Shown here: in pieces, positions 3,313 through 18,950 of the stretch | How positions within the stretch are numbered: the first letter of the stretch is position 1 | Layout of the letters: each line of letters begins with the position of its first letter | NCBI GenBank assembly: GCA_965214705.1 | Contig: CBDCCI010000002.1 | Coordinates: 928,001-992,000 of the forward strand | Length of the DNA stretch: 64,000 nt | Reading direction: 5' to 3' | DNA from: Alphaproteobacteria bacterium | Lineage (GTDB): Bacteria; Pseudomonadota; Alphaproteobacteria; UBA828 | Made by a program: the position numbers and the translations under genes | Notes under the pieces: model-generated | What the model was told of the DNA's origin: nothing | Seen by the model: the letters and a program-made list of their open reading frames with translations, nothing else | Databases searched by the model: none

Positions 3313-3887
3313 GGCCCTTCCTCCGGGGCGGCAACGACCATGCGGCCGGCCTCGATGTCGATGGCCGGCACGTGCTCCCGCGTGAAGGGGACGAGGGTAG
3401 AGGGCCCGTCGGGCGGCTGAATCTCGACGATGGGTCCGGCGCCGTGGTCGTGAACGGCGCTCACGCGACCCAAGGCGGTGCCATCTTCGCTTTCCGCCCG
3501 GAGGCCGAGGAGATCGACGTGGTAGTACTCCTCGCCCTCGGTCGGCGGCAGCGCCGCCCGCGGGACGTAGAGGTCCGTGCCGCGCAACGCCTCTGCCGCG
3601 TCGCGGTCGTCAATGCCCTCGACGCGGGCGAGCACGAGGCCCTTCACGTGCCCCGTCACCGTGACCGTGAGGCGCCGGGTGCCGGCCTCGTTGCTGAGCG
3701 CGCCGTAAGCGGTGAGGTCGTCCGGATTCGCCGTATGGCTCTTGATGCGCACGATGCCGCGCACACCGTGGGCGCCCACGATGCGCCCGAGACAGACCGT
3801 CTCCGCCCGCCGCGCCGCAGCCTCCCCAGGGGCAGCAGCCGCGGCGGGTGCGGCCTCAGCCCTCGGCCTTCTCTTCGCCCTCGCCAT
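3309..3887 (-). CDS. rimM: 16S rRNA processing protein RimM
   Basis: [25 protein letters not shown] barrel; start taken at ATG 3887 (uncertain), overlapping rpsP end. Confidence 0.92.
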
Positions 3888-4440
3888 CGTCTGTACCGGC
3901 CTCCTCGGAGGGAGCCTCTTCGGCGGCGGCGTCCTCGGTAGGCGCGGCTTCCTCAGCAGGTGCCTCTTCGGCAGCGACCTCCTCCGGAGCAGCCTCTTCG
4001 GCGGTTTCTTCGGAGGGAGCCTCTTCGGCAGCAGCTTCCTCAGGAGGGGCCTCCTCGGCGACGGATTCCGGGGGAGTCTCTGCTTTGGCCTCGGCCGCCG
4101 CCTTGGCCTTCTCGGCGCGTGCCGCCTGGCGCTCCAGGGCCTTCGCCCTGGGCTGGCCCTTCTGCGGGTTGTTGCGCTGCGCCGGCATCGGGATGATCTC
4201 GGCGGCGCCGAGGAATCGCGCCACGCGATCCGAGGGCAGAGCGCCGACGCCGAGCCAGTGGCGAATGCGCTCCTCGTTAAGGCGCACGCGCTCGGGATGG
4301 TCCTTGGGCAGCATCGGGTCGTAGGTCCCGAGCCTTTCCAGGAAGCGGCCATCGCGCGGGCTACGGGTGTCGGCCACGACCACGCGGTAGAACGGGCGCT
4401 TCTTGGCGCCGGCGCGGGACAGGCGAATTTTCAGTGACAT
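3856..4440 (-). CDS. rpsP: 30S ribosomal protein S16 with long acidic Ala/Glu/Pro C-terminal tail
   Basis: [42 protein letters not shown]. Confidence 0.97.
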
Positions 4441-4473
4441 GCTTTCTCCAGTCTTCTTGTGGGCTGCGTGTAA

Positions 4474-5829
4474 TCAGCGGGGCGGCATGATGCCGGGCAT
4501 CCCGGCCCGCATCAGGCCCTTCTCGCCCAGCTTGCCGGCCCGCTTCATCATGACGTTCATCTGCTTCACTTGCTTGAGCAGGCGGTTGATGTCCTGCACG
4601 GTGGTGCCCGAGCCGCCCGCGATGCGCCGCTTGCGCGAGCTGTTGAGCAGCTTGGGGTTGCTCCGCTCGGCCGGTGTCATCGAATCGATGATCGCCTGCT
4701 GGCGGTCGAGCATCTTGATGTCGACATTGGCGTCGGCGAGCTGGCGCTTGACCTTGCCCACCCCCGGCAGCATGCCGAGCAGGCCCTCCATGCCGCCCAT
4801 CTTGCGGACCTGCTGAATTTGCTTGGAGAGGTCGTTGAGGTCGAAGCCGCCCTTCTTGGCCTTGCGGACCAGGCGCTCGGCCTCGTCCTGCTCGATCGTC
4901 TCCTGCGCCCGCTCGACCAGCGAGACCACGTCGCCCATGCCGAGGATGCGCGACGCGATCCGGTCCGGGTGGAAGGGCTCGATGGCGTCGAGCTTCTCGC
5001 CGACGCCGATCAGCTTGATCGGGCAGCCGGTGACCGCGCGCATGCTGAGCGCGGCACCGCCCCGTCCGTCGCCATCGACGCGGGTCAGCGCGATGCCAGT
5101 TAGGCCGATGCGCTCGTGGAAGGCGCTGGCGACGTTGACCGCGTCCTGGCCGGTCAGCGCGTCGGCGACCAGCAGGGTCTCCGCCGGCACCGTCACGTCG
5201 CGGACCGCCGCGCATTCGGCCATCAGCTCCTCGTCCACGTGGAGCCGGCCGGCGGTATCCAGCAGGACCACGTCGTGGCCCTCCTGCGCGGCGGACTTCA
5301 TGGCGCGCCGCGCGATCCCGACCGCGCGCTCGCCGGGGATCACCGGCAGCACATCAACCTCGGCCTGCACAGCGAGCGTCGCGAGCTGCTCCATGGCCGC
5401 AGGCCGGCTGGTGTCGAGCGAGGCCATCAGCACGCGCTTCTTGTGGCTCACGCGCAGGAAGAGGCCGAGCTTGGCCGTCGTGGTGGTCTTGCCCGAGCCC
5501 TGCAGGCCCACCATGAGGACGGCGGCAGGCGGCGTGGCCGCAGCGATACCGATCTCGGCTGTCTCGCCGCCCAGCATCTCGATCAGGTGATCGTTCACGA
5601 TCTTGATCACCTGCTGGCCCGGCGCCACGCTCTTCAGCACGTCGGCGCCGATCGCCTTCTCGCTGACGGCCGTGACGAAGTCCTTGACCACGGGGAGCGC
5701 GACATCGGCTTCGAGCAGGGCGATCCGCACGTCGCGGAGCGCGGCGCTCACGTCCGCCTCGCTCAGCGCGCCGCGCCGCGTCAGCGTCTCGAAGACCCCG
5801 TTGAGCCTGCCGGACAGACTATCGAACAC
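4474..5829 (-). CDS. ffh: Signal recognition particle protein Ffh
   Basis: GLQGSGKTTT, DTAGR, RILGMGDV, Met-rich M domain; GTG start at 5829. Confidence 0.97.
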   Translation of the reverse strand: MFDSLSGRLNGVFETLTRRGALSEADVSAALRDVRIALLEADVALPVVKDFVTAVSEKAIGADVLKSVAPGQQVIKIVNDHLIEMLGGETAEIGIAAATPPAAVLMVGLQGSGKTTTTAKLGLFLRVSHKKRVLMASLDTSRPAAMEQLATLAVQAEVDVLPVIPGERAVGIARRAMKSAAQEGHDVVLLDTAGRLHVDEELMAECAAVRDVTVPAETLLVADALTGQDAVNVASAFHERIGLTGIALTRVDGDGRGGAALSMRAVTGCPIKLIGVGEKLDAIEPFHPDRIASRILGMGDVVSLVERAQETIEQDEAERLVRKAKKGGFDLNDLSKQIQQVRKMGGMEGLLGMLPGVGKVKRQLADANVDIKMLDRQQAIIDSMTPAERSNPKLLNSSRKRRIAGGSGTTVQDINRLLKQVKQMNVMMKRAGKLGEKGLMRAGMPGIMPPR

Positions 5830-12716: not shown

Positions 12717-13862
12717 CTACCATTGCGGCCGTGCCTCGATCGGCCAAATGTCCACCAGCGTGTCGCCGCGCACGCAGTGGTAGACGTCGTAGAGCAGGAG
12801 CGTCTGGTAGCAGTGCGGCGCCATGCATTCCAGCGCGTCGCCAACCTGCGGCAGGCTCTCGCCCTCCGGCACGGTGAGGCGGCCCATGTCGTCGCCGACC
12901 AGCTCGTAGAGGGAGTCCGGGTGCGCGCCCTGGGCGACGCGGGGCGGGAACTCCTCGCGCTGTAGCTCCTTGATCCCGGCGTCGGTGACGGCGAACTCGT
13001 CCCGCGCGCTGATCACCGTGGTGCGGACGAAGAGCGAGGTCTCGAAGGGATGCGGGTTATCGGGCTCGAAGGGGGTATCGGCGTAGTTCACGTCCATGAA
13101 GATGTAGCTTCCGGCCTGGCACTCGGTGAAGAGACCATTGGCCGCATCAATGGCATAGGTGCCGGTACCGCCGCCGGAGACGATCTCCGGCGCCAGGCCG
13201 GCCTCCGTGAGGCGTCCGCAAAGCTCGGCCAGCGGCGCGGTGCAGCGCTCCTGCTCGGCGCGGCGGGCGTCAAGGTCGGGCTCGCGCTGGAAGGAGCCGT
13301 TGTAGCCCTGCACGCCCGCGTAGACCGCGCCCTCGGTCTCGGCGATGTGGCGTGCGAGCGCCAACGCATCGTCCACCGCGACGAGGCCGGTGCGCCGGCC
13401 ACCCACCTCGAAGTCCACCAGCATGCGGAGCGGCTTGCCGGCTTCCAAAGCGGCCGCGACCAGCCGGTCCACCACTGCGGCATCGTCCACGGCGACGAGC
13501 AGTCCTTCGGCACGGGCGTTGAGCCGGGCGAGGCGGGCGATCTTGGGCTCGGTCACGACCTGGGAGAAGAGCAGCACACCCGGAATCCCGGCATCGGCCA
13601 TGATCTCGGCCTCGGCCAGCGTCGCGCAGCACTGGCCGAGCGCGCCGGCCTCGATCTGGCGCCTGGCGACCTCCACCGACTTGTGGATTTTGGCGACGGG
13701 CCGGACCCCGTGGCCGGCCTTGCCCAGGTAGTCGGCAAGATAGGCGATGTTGCGCTCCAGCCGGTCGAGATCGAGCACCAGCGCCGGCGTCGACAGCGCC
13801 GTGCGCGAGCCCTGCTGGCCGATGAGCGGTTCGTTGGGGCCGAGCTTTCCGATAGCGCCCAT
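12717..13862 (-). CDS. Fold-type III PLP enzyme, DSD1 / D-threonine aldolase family
   Basis: TPALVLDLD, RPVAKIHKS (PLP Lys), SGGGTGT, AGSYIFMD, PHC. Confidence 0.88.
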   Translation of the reverse strand: MGAIGKLGPNEPLIGQQGSRTALSTPALVLDLDRLERNIAYLADYLGKAGHGVRPVAKIHKSVEVARRQIEAGALGQCCATLAEAEIMADAGIPGVLLFSQVVTEPKIARLARLNARAEGLLVAVDDAAVVDRLVAAALEAGKPLRMLVDFEVGGRRTGLVAVDDALALARHIAETEGAVYAGVQGYNGSFQREPDLDARRAEQERCTAPLAELCGRLTEAGLAPEIVSGGGTGTYAIDAANGLFTECQAGSYIFMDVNYADTPFEPDNPHPFETSLFVRTTVISARDEFAVTDAGIKELQREEFPPRVAQGAHPDSLYELVGDDMGRLTVPEGESLPQVGDALECMAPHCYQTLLLYDVYHCVRGDTLVDIWPIEARPQW

Positions 13863-13951
13863 GACTCTTCCTCGTTCTCAGTTGGCTGACACTCGCCCCA
13901 GCGCGGAGCGAGCATAGCGATTGTTAAGGTTTCGTCAGACGAATTCCCGGC

Positions 13952-13981
13952 TTGACGAGCCGATGCCCGGACCCATATCGT
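13952..13981 (+). promoter_or_regulatory. Putative sigma70 promoter for NYN leader
   Basis: TTGACG (13952-57), 18 nt spacer, TATCGT (13976-81). Confidence 0.55.
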
Positions 13982-14033
13982 AGCGACCTTCTATGGACCC
14001 CATCGTTCCCTTGGGCACGGTGGGTATTGAATG

Positions 14034-14059
14034 GGGCCGGCACAAGCCGGCCCTTTTTT
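14034..14059 (+). terminator. Intrinsic terminator in the leader, 13 nt before the NYN start codon
   Basis: GGGCCGGC-ACAA-GCCGGCCC perfect 8-bp GC stem followed by TTTTTT. Confidence 0.8.
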
Positions 14060-14072
14060 CCAAGGGGCGTCG

Positions 14073-14633
14073 ATGTCAGTTACGGCGGTCTTCATCGACG
14101 GCGGTTACCTCGACAAGGTCCTGTACCACGATCACGGCAACCAGCGTATCGACTACGCCCGTCTCGTCGACGCCATGACGGGAGAAGGCGAACTGTTGCG
14201 CGCCTACTACTACCATTGCCTGCCGTATCAAGGGAGCCCGCCCACCGAGGAAGAGAAGCGTCGCTACGCGGCCAAACACCGCTTCATCACCGCTCTCCTT
14301 CATCTGCCTCGGTTCGACGTGCGGTTGGGCAAACTCGCGTACAGAGGGCAGGACGAACGTGGCAGGCCGATCTTTCAACAAAAGCGGGTCGATCTCATGC
14401 TCGGGGTCGATATGGCTCTCCTCGCCGGCAAGGGCCGCATTGCTAGGGTTGCGTTGCTAGCTGGAGACAGCGATTTCACGCCGGCGATCGAAGCCGTCAA
14501 ACGCGAAGGGGTTCTCACCACTCTCTGGCATGGCAGTCGTTCCGATCAGACGGCGCCCAGCCGCGAGCTGTTGGAGATATGCGATGAACGCCACGAGCTT
14601 ACTGCCGAGCTCATTGGATCGATACGGCGTTGA
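14073..14633 (+). CDS. NYN domain (LabA/DUF88, PIN-like) ribonuclease
   Basis: VFIDGGYL, QQKRVDLMLGVD, LAGDSDF acidic catalytic motifs; SD AAGGGG before ATG 14073. Confidence 0.9.
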   Translation: MSVTAVFIDGGYLDKVLYHDHGNQRIDYARLVDAMTGEGELLRAYYYHCLPYQGSPPTEEEKRRYAAKHRFITALLHLPRFDVRLGKLAYRGQDERGRPIFQQKRVDLMLGVDMALLAGKGRIARVALLAGDSDFTPAIEAVKREGVLTTLWHGSRSDQTAPSRELLEICDERHELTAELIGSIRR

Positions 14634-14706
14634 ACTTACGTGCGGCACTGAGCGTCACCTCTAGTGCGGCCGGGCGCCGAACAATAGAGGCAGCCAGCTA
14701 GGGAGA

Positions 14707-15249
14707 ATGGACATGGCGGACGGAAAACGTGGCCCGACGGCTCCGGCGGAGGGACCGGCGCGGGCGCTCGATCACGTCGGCATTTCGGTGCCTGATATCG
14801 ACGCGGCCGTCGCTTGGTATCGCGACATCCTTGGCTGCTACGTGCTGATGGAGCCCGTGGAGGGCTACGCCGACGGCAGCTATTTCGGGCAGATCGTCGC
14901 CGACATCTACGGTGCGGACTTTCAGGGGATGAAAATCGCCCACCTGGCGACGGCCGACGGGGTCGGCATCGAGCTCTTCCAGTTTGTCGCCAACGAGCGG
15001 CAGGAGAACAACTTCGCCTACTGGAAGGACGGCATCTATCACATTTGCATCCTCGACCCCGACATCGAGGGCCTGGTGAAACGGATCGACGAAAGCGGCG
15101 GGCGCCAGCGCAGCAAGGTCTGGAAGCTCTGGCCCGACAAGCCCTACAGGATCTGCTATTGCGAAGACCCTTGGGGCACCATCATCGAGGTCAGCTCCCA
15201 CCCCTACGTCATGGCCTGGTCCAACTTCATCCCGCGGCACGGGGACTGA
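14707..15249 (+). CDS. VOC / lactoylglutathione lyase family protein
   Basis: DHVGISVPDIDAAVAWY, GIELFQF, YCEDPWGTIIEV. Confidence 0.88.
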   Translation: MDMADGKRGPTAPAEGPARALDHVGISVPDIDAAVAWYRDILGCYVLMEPVEGYADGSYFGQIVADIYGADFQGMKIAHLATADGVGIELFQFVANERQENNFAYWKDGIYHICILDPDIEGLVKRIDESGGRQRSKVWKLWPDKPYRICYCEDPWGTIIEVSSHPYVMAWSNFIPRHGD

Positions 15250-15298
15250 CCGACTGGTCCCGGCCTCGGTGGCGGCCAAGCACCGTGGCCAGCAGACG

Positions 15299-16462
15299 AT
15301 GACGGTCTCTCGACTGCGCGACATCCCCGGCATCGGCGTCGACCGCATGGGCGATGCGGCGGACGCCGCGCGCGATCCCGACATGCTTCGGCTGGAGAAC
15401 CTGGATACCGACATCCCGCCGCCCCAGGCCGCCATAGAGGCCACCCGCGCTGCTGCAGCCCGCGACGACGCCAACAGCTACCTGCCCTTCCTGGGCACGG
15501 ACGAACTCAGGCAAGCGGTGGTGGCGCGGCTCGAGGCTGACACGGGCATCGCCTACGACTGGCGGGCGCAGTGCGTGATCTCGGCGGGCGGGCTTTCCGG
15601 CATCCTCAACGCACTCCTCGCCATGCTGGAGCCCGGTGACGAGGTCATCATCAGCGACCCGGCTTACGCGGGCCTCATCAACCGCATCCGCCTCGCCGGC
15701 GGGGTGACCCGCCTGGTGCCGCTCAGAGTGGTGGAGGGCGGCTGGCGGCTCGATCTGGAGGCGCTGGCCGAGGCCGTGAGCGCAAAGACCAGGGTCGTGC
15801 TGACCATGAGCCCGTCGATGCCGAGCGGCATCGTCCACACGGCCGAAGAGTGGCAGGCGATCGCCGCTGTCGTGCAGCAGACCGGCGCCTGGCTCCTGCA
15901 CGACGCGGCGATGGAGCGGCTTCTGTTCGGCTCGGCGCCGGCCCTGCACCCGGCCCGGCTACCGGCGCTTGCCGAGAGGACCGTGACAGTCGGCAGCGTC
16001 TCCAAGGAATACCGGATGATCGGCTGGCGCGTGGGTTGGATCGCAGGCCCCGAAGAGATCATGCGGGACATCGGGCTGGTCGGCCTGACCAACGTGGTCT
16101 GCCAGGTCGGCATCGCCATGCCGGGGGCCGCGGCGGCGCTCACTGCGGACGACGACGGCATCGCCGCAGCGGTTGCCGAATTGCAGGCGAGGCGGGACGT
16201 CATTCTCAAGGAGCTGTCGGACCTGCCCGTGGTCCGGCCGGACGGCGGCTGGTCGCTCCTGATCGACACGGTGGCCCTTGGCATGAGCCCTGCCGACGCG
16301 TCGCAACGCCTGTTCGAGACGGGCAAGATCGCCGCGACCCCGATGACCGGCTGGGGTAGCGAGGAGATTGCCGGCCGCTACCTGCGCTTCGTCTTCGCCA
16401 ACGAGCCGTGCGAACGCCTCATCGGCCTGCGTGAGCGTGTTCGCACCGCGTGGTCGCTCTGA
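15299..16462 (+). CDS. Class I/II PLP-dependent aminotransferase
   Basis: GSVSKEYRMIGWRVGW, YLRFVF. Confidence 0.9.
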   Translation: MTVSRLRDIPGIGVDRMGDAADAARDPDMLRLENLDTDIPPPQAAIEATRAAAARDDANSYLPFLGTDELRQAVVARLEADTGIAYDWRAQCVISAGGLSGILNALLAMLEPGDEVIISDPAYAGLINRIRLAGGVTRLVPLRVVEGGWRLDLEALAEAVSAKTRVVLTMSPSMPSGIVHTAEEWQAIAAVVQQTGAWLLHDAAMERLLFGSAPALHPARLPALAERTVTVGSVSKEYRMIGWRVGWIAGPEEIMRDIGLVGLTNVVCQVGIAMPGAAAALTADDDGIAAAVAELQARRDVILKELSDLPVVRPDGGWSLLIDTVALGMSPADASQRLFETGKIAATPMTGWGSEEIAGRYLRFVFANEPCERLIGLRERVRTAWSL

Positions 16463-18007: not shown

Positions 18008-18370
18008 ATGGCAGGAGCAAAGGCAGCAGCCGTGAGCGGTGCAATCGCGAAGCGATTGGGATCGATCTCCGCCAAGGGCGCGATGCGGCATGTCGAGGTT
18101 GCCAACCTGCTTGGGACCAGACCTGAGACGGTGTCGCGCTGGAACCAGGGCCGCGCCTATCCGCACGCGAGAACCGAGAAAACCCTTCTGGAGCTTGAGT
18201 ATATCGTCGACCAGCTATCAGACTTCTACGAGCCCAACGAGGCTCGTCAGTGGATGTTTGCGCCGCAAAGGCTCTTGCGCGGGCGGTCGCCGGCAGAGCT
18301 GATCCAGGCCGGGCGAATCGATGACGTACGACGGTTGGTCAACCAGCTCCGCGACGGTGTGTACGTCTAG
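18008..18370 (+). CDS. Xre/MbcA/ParS-type antitoxin (HTH + DUF2384-like C-terminus)
   Basis: HTH VEVANLLGTRPETVSRW; WMFAPQRLLRGRSPAELI; directly upstream of RES gene. Confidence 0.85.
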   Translation: MAGAKAAAVSGAIAKRLGSISAKGAMRHVEVANLLGTRPETVSRWNQGRAYPHARTEKTLLELEYIVDQLSDFYEPNEARQWMFAPQRLLRGRSPAELIQAGRIDDVRRLVNQLRDGVYV

Positions 18371-18389: not shown

Positions 18390-18950
18390 ATGATCCACGA
18401 TCCGGATCTTCTGGATCGCCTGAGCGCATTTCACCCGGAACGTTTCGAGGGTGAGGTATTCCGGGCAACACGCACAAATGCGGATCCGATTGCCGCATCC
18501 ATCAGCGGCGGTCGGTGGGCGCCGCCGCCTGACGGCAATGTCGGGCACTCCGTTCTCTACACCAGTCTCGAACGCGATGGGGCGATCGCCGAGGTAGCCT
18601 CGTTTCTGGCGGAACTGACGCCGATCCCAGGCCCCCGCCCGATCAGCGTAACGCGCCTGGCCGTCTCGACATCGCACACGCTGCAGCTTGTGAGGACCGA
18701 TCTCGCTACGCTCGGGGTGGACTTGGCTCGCTACGGGGAGCGCGACTACGGTCGAACGCAGAAGATCGGCGCGGCTCTTGTCTTTCTCGGTCTCGACGGT
18801 CTCATTGCTCCTTCGGCCCGCTGGCCCTGCGACAACCTGATGATATTCGGAGACAACCACGCGTTGGCAGAGACCCTCGAGCCGGTTGGGAGGGGCAGGG
18901 TCGAGTGGCGAGAGTGGGCAGAGGCCCACGGTATTCTCTCAGACACGTGA
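18390..18950 (+). CDS. RES domain toxin (NAD+ phosphorylase-like)
   Basis: GGRW, LYTSLERDGAIAEV, GLIAPSAR...NLMIF: R, E, S residues of the RES family. Confidence 0.85.
   Translation: MIHDPDLLDRLSAFHPERFEGEVFRATRTNADPIAASISGGRWAPPPDGNVGHSVLYTSLERDGAIAEVASFLAELTPIPGPRPISVTRLAVSTSHTLQLVRTDLATLGVDLARYGERDYGRTQKIGAALVFLGLDGLIAPSARWPCDNLMIFGDNHALAETLEPVGRGRVEWREWAEAHGILSDT

Follow-up and report, generated by a model that had tools for sequence, protein, structure and literature searches.

The 64,000-nt stretch of an alphaproteobacterial genome analyzed here (assembly GCA_965214705.1, contig CBDCCI010000002.1, positions 928,001 to 992,000 of the forward strand; hereafter the window) carries a gene for a ribonuclease of the NYN domain family, which is preceded by a promoter, a small hairpin and an intrinsic terminator. 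This promoter–hairpin–terminator unit and its relation to the nuclease are the subject of the present analysis. The unit lies in the intergenic region 13863-14072, between the plus-strand NYN gene and a minus-strand gene for a pyridoxal phosphate enzyme (12717-13862) with Ala_racemase_N and D-ser_dehydrat domains. An earlier reading of the window from its letters (the sequence-only reading) had proposed that the short RNA encoded here controls the nuclease, possibly in the way of a type III toxin–antitoxin (TA) system. The features of the locus are as follows.

13952-13957, plus strand: −35 box TTGACG, from a promoter scan; invariant in four genomes of the genus.
13976-13981, plus strand: −10 box TATCGT, from the same scan; the exact hexamer is uncertain, and a −10-like box stands at the equivalent spot in other loci.
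13988-14059, plus strand: predicted small RNA or leader of ~72 nt, its start placed from the promoter and its end at the terminator U-tract.
13993-13994, plus strand: 5′ AU, 4 nt ahead of the stem; invariant columns 5-6 of alignment A2.
13999-14024, plus strand: conserved hairpin with a 7-bp variable outer stem, a fixed G-UUC / A core and a short apical stem-loop.
14031-14032, plus strand: second conserved AU, 7 nt past the stem.
14033-14059, plus strand: intrinsic terminator with a 9-bp G+C-rich stem, a 4-nt loop and a T-run, from a terminator scan.
14062-14067, plus strand: Shine-Dalgarno sequence AAGGGG, 5 nt ahead of the ATG, read from the sequence.
14073-14633, plus strand: gene of the NYN-domain ribonuclease, 186 amino acids (Pfam NYN, E 3.9e-15).

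The promoter TTGACG-N18-TATCGT was recovered exactly where the sequence-only reading had placed it. With its 18-nt spacer it matches the consensus at 9 of 12 positions, and it is the sole promoter-like site in 13400-15400, a region in which shuffled sequences lead one to expect 0.4 ± 0.6. The hairpin drawn in that reading was likewise present, CCCATCGT (13999-14006) pairing with ACGGTGGG (14017-14024) with one G-U pair, and it turned out to be one copy of a conserved RNA motif, matched by the covariance model R1 at 13989-14029 with 42.2 bits. The terminator stem (14033-14054) consists of 9 pairs, 8 of them G-C, and is followed by a T-run to 14059 and then, after the 13 nt reported before, by the ATG at 14073. 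Because the single terminator-like site seen in 2 kb equals the chance level (0.8 ± 1.0 in shuffles), the weight of the terminator rests on its conservation in homologues and not on the window. The fold of 13986-14080 was predicted at −41.7 kcal/mol (z −2.04), and 5 of 200 shuffles were equally stable. No direct-repeat family was detected in the region of the RNA beyond one 12-nt chance pair.

The gene product matched the NYN family of Pfam (PF01936) over residues 4-172 with 57.1 bits against a cutoff of 24.2, and its N-terminus aligned with those of its homologues from residue 1. The catalytic Asp motifs had been described as intact, and in an alignment with 35 homologues D9, D107, D113 and D132-S133 were indeed invariant and D134 was at least 90% conserved, while the motifs YYYHCLPYQ and QQKRVD were common to all 35. 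The AlphaFold model, with a predicted local distance difference test score (pLDDT) of 95.3, found its best structural match in 2qip (E 2.5e-8), followed by the NYN domain of MARF1 (E 1.5e-4), with 5yaa and 6fdl also among the matches; no NCBIfam model for the protein and no sequence relative in the PDB were found. Since the acidic residues are invariant and the predicted fold is that of NYN proteins, the protein looks like an active PIN-like nuclease. It shares domain family and fold with the LabA-like NYN proteins (PF01936, NYN.COG1432, 2qip), a family of thousands that was listed as being of unknown function in a 2017 survey of the PIN superfamily, the accessible text of which mentions no RNA partner for this group (PMC5499597). 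Unlike the LabA-like proteins at large, the window protein belongs to a distinct and highly conserved 186-amino-acid subfamily with signature motifs of its own.

For the comparison of loci, one genome per species was scanned and the best 80 of 200 NYN relatives were kept. These relatives, with 49-99% identity, came from Alpha-, Beta- and Gammaproteobacteria, Acidobacteriota, Gemmatimonadota, Chloroflexota, Nitrospinota, Planctomycetota, Binatia, Armatimonadota, Firmicutes and others, and their upstream regions revealed the same kind of hairpin with differing stem sequences. In a search with R1 over 100 loci (518 kb), 47 of the 80 gave a match at E<0.01 on the strand of the gene, 75-135 nt 5′ of NYN, where the E-values are rough and the NYN starts derive from tblastn. 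When weaker and by-eye instances were included, the tally rose to 59 of the 80 loci; the additional ones were three weaker matches (L061, L065 and L070), two obtained with filters off (L073 and L101), two recognized by eye (L064 and L082) and other cases downstream of the gene. The motif stood upstream of NYN in 53 of these 59.

Conserved structure with compensatory changes was found in these homologous regions. In the MAFFT alignment of 32 seed hairpins, 6 of 11 pairs changed on both sides, and the covariation score of 0.515 (0.172 in shuffles) was reached by none of 500 shuffled alignments. Paired cells amounted to 92%, a percentage inflated by the choice of the seeds with a script requiring perfect 7-bp arms, and fell to 35-53% after the 3′ partner was slid by 1-3 columns. 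RNAalifold independently predicted the same helix. G-U pairs were frequent (17 of 61 at one pair), which fits a structure that is read as RNA on the strand of the gene. Beyond the 7-bp stem of free sequence, the core comprises a G, a U whose partner is an invariant A, a U opposite C, G or U, and a C-G pair, and it is topped by a short apical stem that often carries a UNCG-type loop. The pattern of a fixed helical core with an AU on either side resembles a surface for recognition by a protein, with possible sites of cleavage.

Three other interpretations of the conserved letters were tried and discarded. A leader peptide does not account for them, as the 5′ AU is followed by G in only 32 of 50 instances (A in 11, C in 7), so that no start codon is conserved, and the changes in the stem are compensatory at the RNA level. 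Pairing of the two AUs to close the hairpin is suggested by the fold of L085, in which GAAU pairs with AUUC, but the adjacent bases do not co-vary elsewhere when inspected by eye. Neither CsrA-type GGA loops nor mimicry of a tRNA T-arm, considered from GUUC...GGAU, was consistent over the two hairpin classes.

The position of each part within the unit was also fixed. In 40 of 50 distinct loci, TTGAC preceded the invariant AU by 38-46 nt, against a background of 0.91 per kb, and the 41 nt found in the window is the commonest value, so that the promoter is conserved at a set distance in homologues and transcription is predicted to start 2-6 nt before the AU. The 5′ AU itself was present in all 50 distinct instances, with the stem beginning 4 nt later, and 45 of the 50 had the second AU starting at +5 to +7 past the stem, compared with 14.4 ± 3.1, and at most 27, in 2000 shuffles. 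Of 46 loci, 36 passed a strict script for a perfect-stem terminator in the interval from hairpin to NYN, the terminator beginning 6-22 nt past the hairpin and ending 17-51 nt before the start codon; the remaining 10 showed terminator-like hairpins with mismatches or long loops, read by eye, and both the terminator and the promoter scripts are simple pattern rules. In most loci, an additional promoter for NYN alone would find hardly any space, or none, between this terminator and the start codon, and Shine-Dalgarno boxes of the GGAG/GGGG type occupied the equivalent place in most of them. Once the homologues are compared at the sequence level, the hairpin, the terminator and the promoter position are thus far beyond chance.

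The motif was closely tied to the nuclease gene. R1 gave one match in the 7.9-Mb genome of the window, and among 41 relatives matches of at least 42 bits occurred solely in the four genomes with an NYN orthologue, six others having matches of 23-24 bits only. Of five genomes from which other loci derive, four contained exactly one R1 match, beside NYN, and in the fifth (Anoxybacillus) the motif was missed in the genome search and found at E 0.0046 with filters off. No match at E 1e-4 was obtained in 150 other genomes of the class, in which 43 candidates per genome were scored. A repetitive or mobile DNA element was rejected as an explanation, each of the eight genomes with a strong match having a single one that adjoins NYN. 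As the sequence-only reading had stated for the window, no protein antitoxin is adjacent, and among the loci no conserved protein-coding neighbor of NYN was found, the largest cluster of neighboring open reading frames (ORFs) spanning six loci.

The RNA matches no family of Rfam 15. In the window no family reached its gathering score, the best being RF02355 BjrC174 with 30.1 bits against a cutoff of 45, and in ten other loci scanned at E up to 1 nothing overlapped the motif. BjrC174, a small RNA of Bradyrhizobiaceae, was rejected as the identity of the element: its sub-threshold match over 13923-14057 consists of a 25-nt stretch 5′ of the −35 box and the terminator, the conserved hairpin falls into an unaligned gap, and the 5′ stretch is unconserved even within the genus. 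A literature search on NYN proteins with an RNA partner, on PF01936 and on COG1432/LabA-like/DUF88 proteins, with subscription journals outside its coverage, found no account of the RNA in listings and abstracts. Collectively, these results point to an undescribed RNA–protein pair.

Within the genus, 21 genomes including that of the window (G000) were searched, and a close NYN orthologue was found in four of them, namely G000, G006 (99% identity), G003 (87%) and G020 (92%). The DNA 5′ of the −35 box is of three unrelated kinds, one in G000/G006, one in G003 and one in G020; from that box on, the promoter, the hairpin and the terminator stem hardly vary and are better conserved than the coding sequence. 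The terminator loop differs among the four loci while the stem is kept, and the downstream neighbor of NYN differs in G003. The G+C content of the module is 60-61%, compared with ~70% in its flanks. In the window, the stretch 13800-15300, which comprises the NYN module and the following glyoxalase-family gene, has 60-65% G+C against ~70% on both sides, consistent with acquired DNA. In G020 (L004 / L028) the loss of 1 nt in a G-run of NYN, at about nt 1935 of L004, splits the reading frame beside an intact RNA unit of 44.6 bits; a reading of this frameshift as a sign of toxin decay was dropped, since it may be an assembly error.

In Firmicutes the unit was found on the other side of the gene. 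R1 placed it downstream of NYN in L063, L066, L067, L085 and L103, and inspection by eye did likewise in L064. These downstream units have their own promoter of the TTGACA-N17-TATAAT type and their own terminator, and in the four such loci with listed ORFs we judged that no plausible same-strand gene follows the unit. The NYN gene of L064 carries a terminator of its own ahead of the promoter of the downstream unit; in L085 and L103 no terminator stands between the NYN stop codon and the unit. Four NYN relatives were found on IMG/VR contigs, and three of them showed by eye a unit missed by R1: upstream of NYN and with a large apical insert in L127, and downstream, as AU-hairpin-AU-terminator with its own promoter, in L128 and L129. 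Downstream units with their own promoter are hard to square with a riboswitch or an attenuator acting in cis, and a separate terminated RNA that accompanies NYN one-to-one on either side of the gene fits an RNA acting on the protein and not on the gene. In L058, L060 and L062 two hairpins stand in tandem before the terminator, the second copy scoring 12.4 bits in L062 and being unreported by R1 in L058 and L060; this arrangement echoes the repeat arrays of type III antitoxins.

The switch that the sequence-only reading had built into the leader did not hold up in the homologues. Its hairpin loop CCCTTGG (14008-14014) is a perfect 7-nt complement of CCAAGGG (14060-14066), and z is −3.25 relative to shuffled Shine-Dalgarno regions, but the complementarity is unconserved: among 47 loci, only the window has a run of at least 6 nt between loop and Shine-Dalgarno region and only 4 have one of at least 5 nt, the mean z being −0.53, and the run is only 5 nt in the genome with the 99%-identical NYN protein. 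Its antiterminator, CCCCAT (13998-14003) with ATGGGG (14031-14036), can also pair in the window (−13.7 kcal/mol, z −2.07) but is again unconserved. Pairing of the 5′ arm with the terminator had a mean z of −0.63 over 36 loci, and four of the seven with z below −1.64 (L001, L025, L003 and L028) come from the genus of the window, the window included. Since the antiterminator duplex, with a mean energy of −8.8 kcal/mol, is weaker than the hairpin (−15.2) and the terminator (−20.4), both hairpins should form together. No conserved switch is seen in these sequences. Of the RNA-controlled NYN module put forward earlier, the promoter–RNA–terminator partner stands, being conserved across phyla, and the proposed switch does not.

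Several other features were recorded near the module and in single loci. A perfect 13-nt palindrome, TTCGTCAGACGAA (13931-13943), lies in the divergent promoter region immediately before the −35 box, within the stretch of the sub-threshold BjrC174 match; because it is not kept in G003 or G020, it probably belongs to the regulation of the neighboring gene. An 8-nt perfect inverted repeat, CCGGCTTG (13947-13954) and CAAGCCGG (14043-14050), links the −35 region to the loop and 3′ arm of the terminator and is probably due to chance, because the terminator loop varies in relatives. Located 3.4 kb downstream of the NYN module, a gene for an Xre/MbcA/ParS-type antitoxin domain (18008-18370) and an adjacent one for a RES-domain protein (18390-18950) look like a type II TA pair. 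In L052 (Binatia), proteins of the AbiU2-type HEPN and HATPase_c_3 kinds (1767-2744 and 3573-5147) flank the NYN module in a setting resembling a defense island. L026 contains an Rfam DUF3800-IX RNA at 3936-4007 (46.6 bits, cutoff 36.8), ~380 nt downstream of NYN and adjoining a tRNA at 4116-4188, and in L056 (Caulobacter vibrioides OR37) a 6S RNA gene (3723-3884) begins ~160 nt after NYN and is followed by a YmdB-like gene.

The reading that we prefer is a two-part module of a small RNA gene and an NYN ribonuclease gene, in which the small RNA would be the ligand that restrains the nuclease; we consider the chances that this is right to be about even. Under this reading, a sigma-70-type promoter would start transcription a few nt before the invariant AU, and the RNA would fold into the AU-flanked hairpin and end at the strong terminator after ~72 nt. 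For most phyla, and for the window, NYN synthesis would depend entirely on transcription past the terminator, which would keep the RNA in excess over the nuclease. NYN would bind the AU-flanked hairpin as its specific ligand, might trim it at the AU sites, and would be kept in check by it, in the way of either a type III RNA antitoxin or an autoregulatory decoy. As the specific form of this restraint, action in the manner of a type III antitoxin appears the most likely one, though we advance it only tentatively. The same caution applies to the broadest version, a possible phylum-spanning RNA–protein module for TA or anti-phage functions, in which NYN would be held inactive by a single AU-flanked hairpin, perhaps trimmed at the AUs, and freed once synthesis of the short-lived RNA stops. 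We count in favor of an RNA that restrains the nuclease the apparently accessory character of the module, as suggested by its low G+C content, its varying flanks within the genus, the mobile or defense genes next to it in some loci and the four relatives on viral contigs. Among 14 loci examined, such accessory-type neighbors comprised a restriction-modification methylase fragment, an integrase, AbiU2-HEPN, an insertion sequence (IS) transposase, Uma2 and HIRAN.

A number of observations weigh against an RNA restraint of this kind. The motif is missing from 21 of the 80 loci by the above tally, and an indispensable antitoxin should not be absent, which makes the motif-less loci count against it. 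In 14 loci from Longimicrobiaceae (L069, L077, L079, L080, L087, L089, L091-L095, L097, L098 and L104) a conserved promoter, a different G+C-rich structured leader and a conserved terminator occur without the hairpin; this leader lies ~160 nt before NYN, the terminator stem sequence CCCGCCG/CGGCGGG is itself conserved, and the leader may be a second class of RNA that accompanies these proteins. Nothing recognizable as the motif was found in L068, L074-L076 and L099, and neither at the locus nor genome-wide did L083 and L084, both from Firmicutes, yield a credible copy, the sole genome-wide match at E<0.01 having been rejected for lying inside a coding region on the other strand. A 43%-identical NYN homologue from an AT-rich genome has a plain promoter. 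The window RNA is a single unit and not an array, no tandem repeats being present in 13860-14100. Half of the 14 loci examined have an ordinary housekeeping context (prfB, amidase, YmdB, Mqo), annotated plasmid and phage collections returned only generic NYN relatives of at most 34% identity, and PADLOC reported a weak generic NYN match only. The protein, at 50-76% identity across phyla, is unusually conserved for a toxin and could have a housekeeping role in RNA processing. The counts themselves also call for restraint, given the seed selection described above, the fitting of alignment A3 to the model, and the relatedness of many loci, by which the counts overstate independence. Finally, transcription start and end, read-through, RNA–protein binding, inhibition and any role in toxicity or defense are deduced from the sequences.

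The alternative that survives best is that the hairpin is purely autoregulatory, NYN binding or cutting its own mRNA in the 5′ leader of most phyla or the 3′ untranslated region of Firmicutes, with no antitoxin or trans role for the RNA. Ribonuclease mRNAs with autoregulatory stem-loops are exemplified by the rne and rnc leaders of Escherichia coli and by the 3′ untranslated region of Regnase-1 mRNA, Regnase-1 being itself a PIN-like nuclease, and the present case is alike in that a nuclease transcript carries a conserved stem-loop recognizable by the enzyme. The upstream layout would put the hairpin into every read-through transcript of NYN, the NYN mRNA of L085 and L103 could end at the terminator of the unit, the fixed G-UUC/A core resembles a protein recognition site, and the high conservation of the protein suits a non-toxic enzyme. 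Unlike the rne, rnc and Regnase-1 elements, however, the stem-loop precedes a full terminator and can be a separate downstream unit. The strong terminator is predicted to yield far more free RNA than mRNA, which simple feedback does not need, and the near-consensus promoters of the Firmicutes and viral copies, together with the prior termination of NYN in L064, indicate an RNA that would be made independently of the mRNA. We regard pure autoregulation as unlikely.

It is still less probable, and we would be surprised to find, that the small RNA has a function of its own on another cellular target and that NYN matures it or accompanies it as the protein of a ribonucleoprotein, the terminator merely setting the ratio of the two. 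The strict one-to-one linkage with no other partner, the occurrence of the unit on either side of the gene, the two conserved AU sites, which could be processing sites, and the strong purifying selection on the NYN protein would all suit such a particle. But what varies in the RNA is tied up in the stem, and the short single-stranded flanks are unconserved beyond the AUs; no target-pairing region is obvious, and the patchy, low-G+C distribution in variable contexts is unlike that of core RNA processing.

A small riboswitch aptamer, or a protein-independent attenuator acting through the terminator on NYN, is very improbable. The order of a covarying element, a terminator and a gene in the 36 of 46 loci of the strict script speaks for it, as do the conserved unpaired nucleotides, namely the two AUs and the stem position with U-C or U-G; against it stand the lack of a conserved antiterminator between a hairpin and a terminator that lie 6-22 nt apart, the six Firmicutes loci and two viral contigs with the unit after NYN, and the absence of any matching riboswitch family in Rfam. 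Least credible of all is an ordinary leader whose stable hairpin and leaky terminator keep expression of the nuclease low with no specific RNA–protein recognition, for although two hairpins predicted to form together would amount to constitutive attenuation, both AUs and the G-UUC/A core are conserved across phyla, the stem shows compensatory changes, and the unit also occurs as an independent transcription unit downstream of the gene.

To return to the restraint of NYN by the small RNA, the closest known parallel is the type III TA systems, in which an endoribonuclease that arrests growth processes its antitoxin RNA and is neutralized through binding to it. The accessible part of PMC5086642 describes type III loci as one promoter, a repeat RNA, a Rho-independent terminator and a toxin, with three ToxN-like families, and the layout invoked by the sequence-only reading, promoter, RNA, terminator and ribonuclease, agrees with that account. 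The window shares with ToxIN, CptIN and TenpIN this order of promoter, small RNA, terminator and ribonuclease, and likewise an expected excess of the RNA, the lack of a protein antitoxin and a patchy distribution. It differs from them in that its protein has the PIN-like NYN fold and not the ToxN-type fold, that its RNA is normally a single AU-flanked hairpin and not a direct-repeat array, and that in Firmicutes the RNA follows the gene with its own promoter. Having the layout of type III systems but neither their repeat array nor a toxin of their families, the module is not a member of ToxIN, CptIN or TenpIN, though it may work alike.

With these results, one NYN subfamily gains a concrete and conserved RNA partner. 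Should the RNA prove to hold the enzyme in check, the principle of type III systems would no longer be confined to the three ToxN-like families but would include a second nuclease fold and an RNA that is not repetitive. Otherwise, the motif would still be a new structured RNA family with clear covariation, and one that offers a handle on the targets of NYN proteins.

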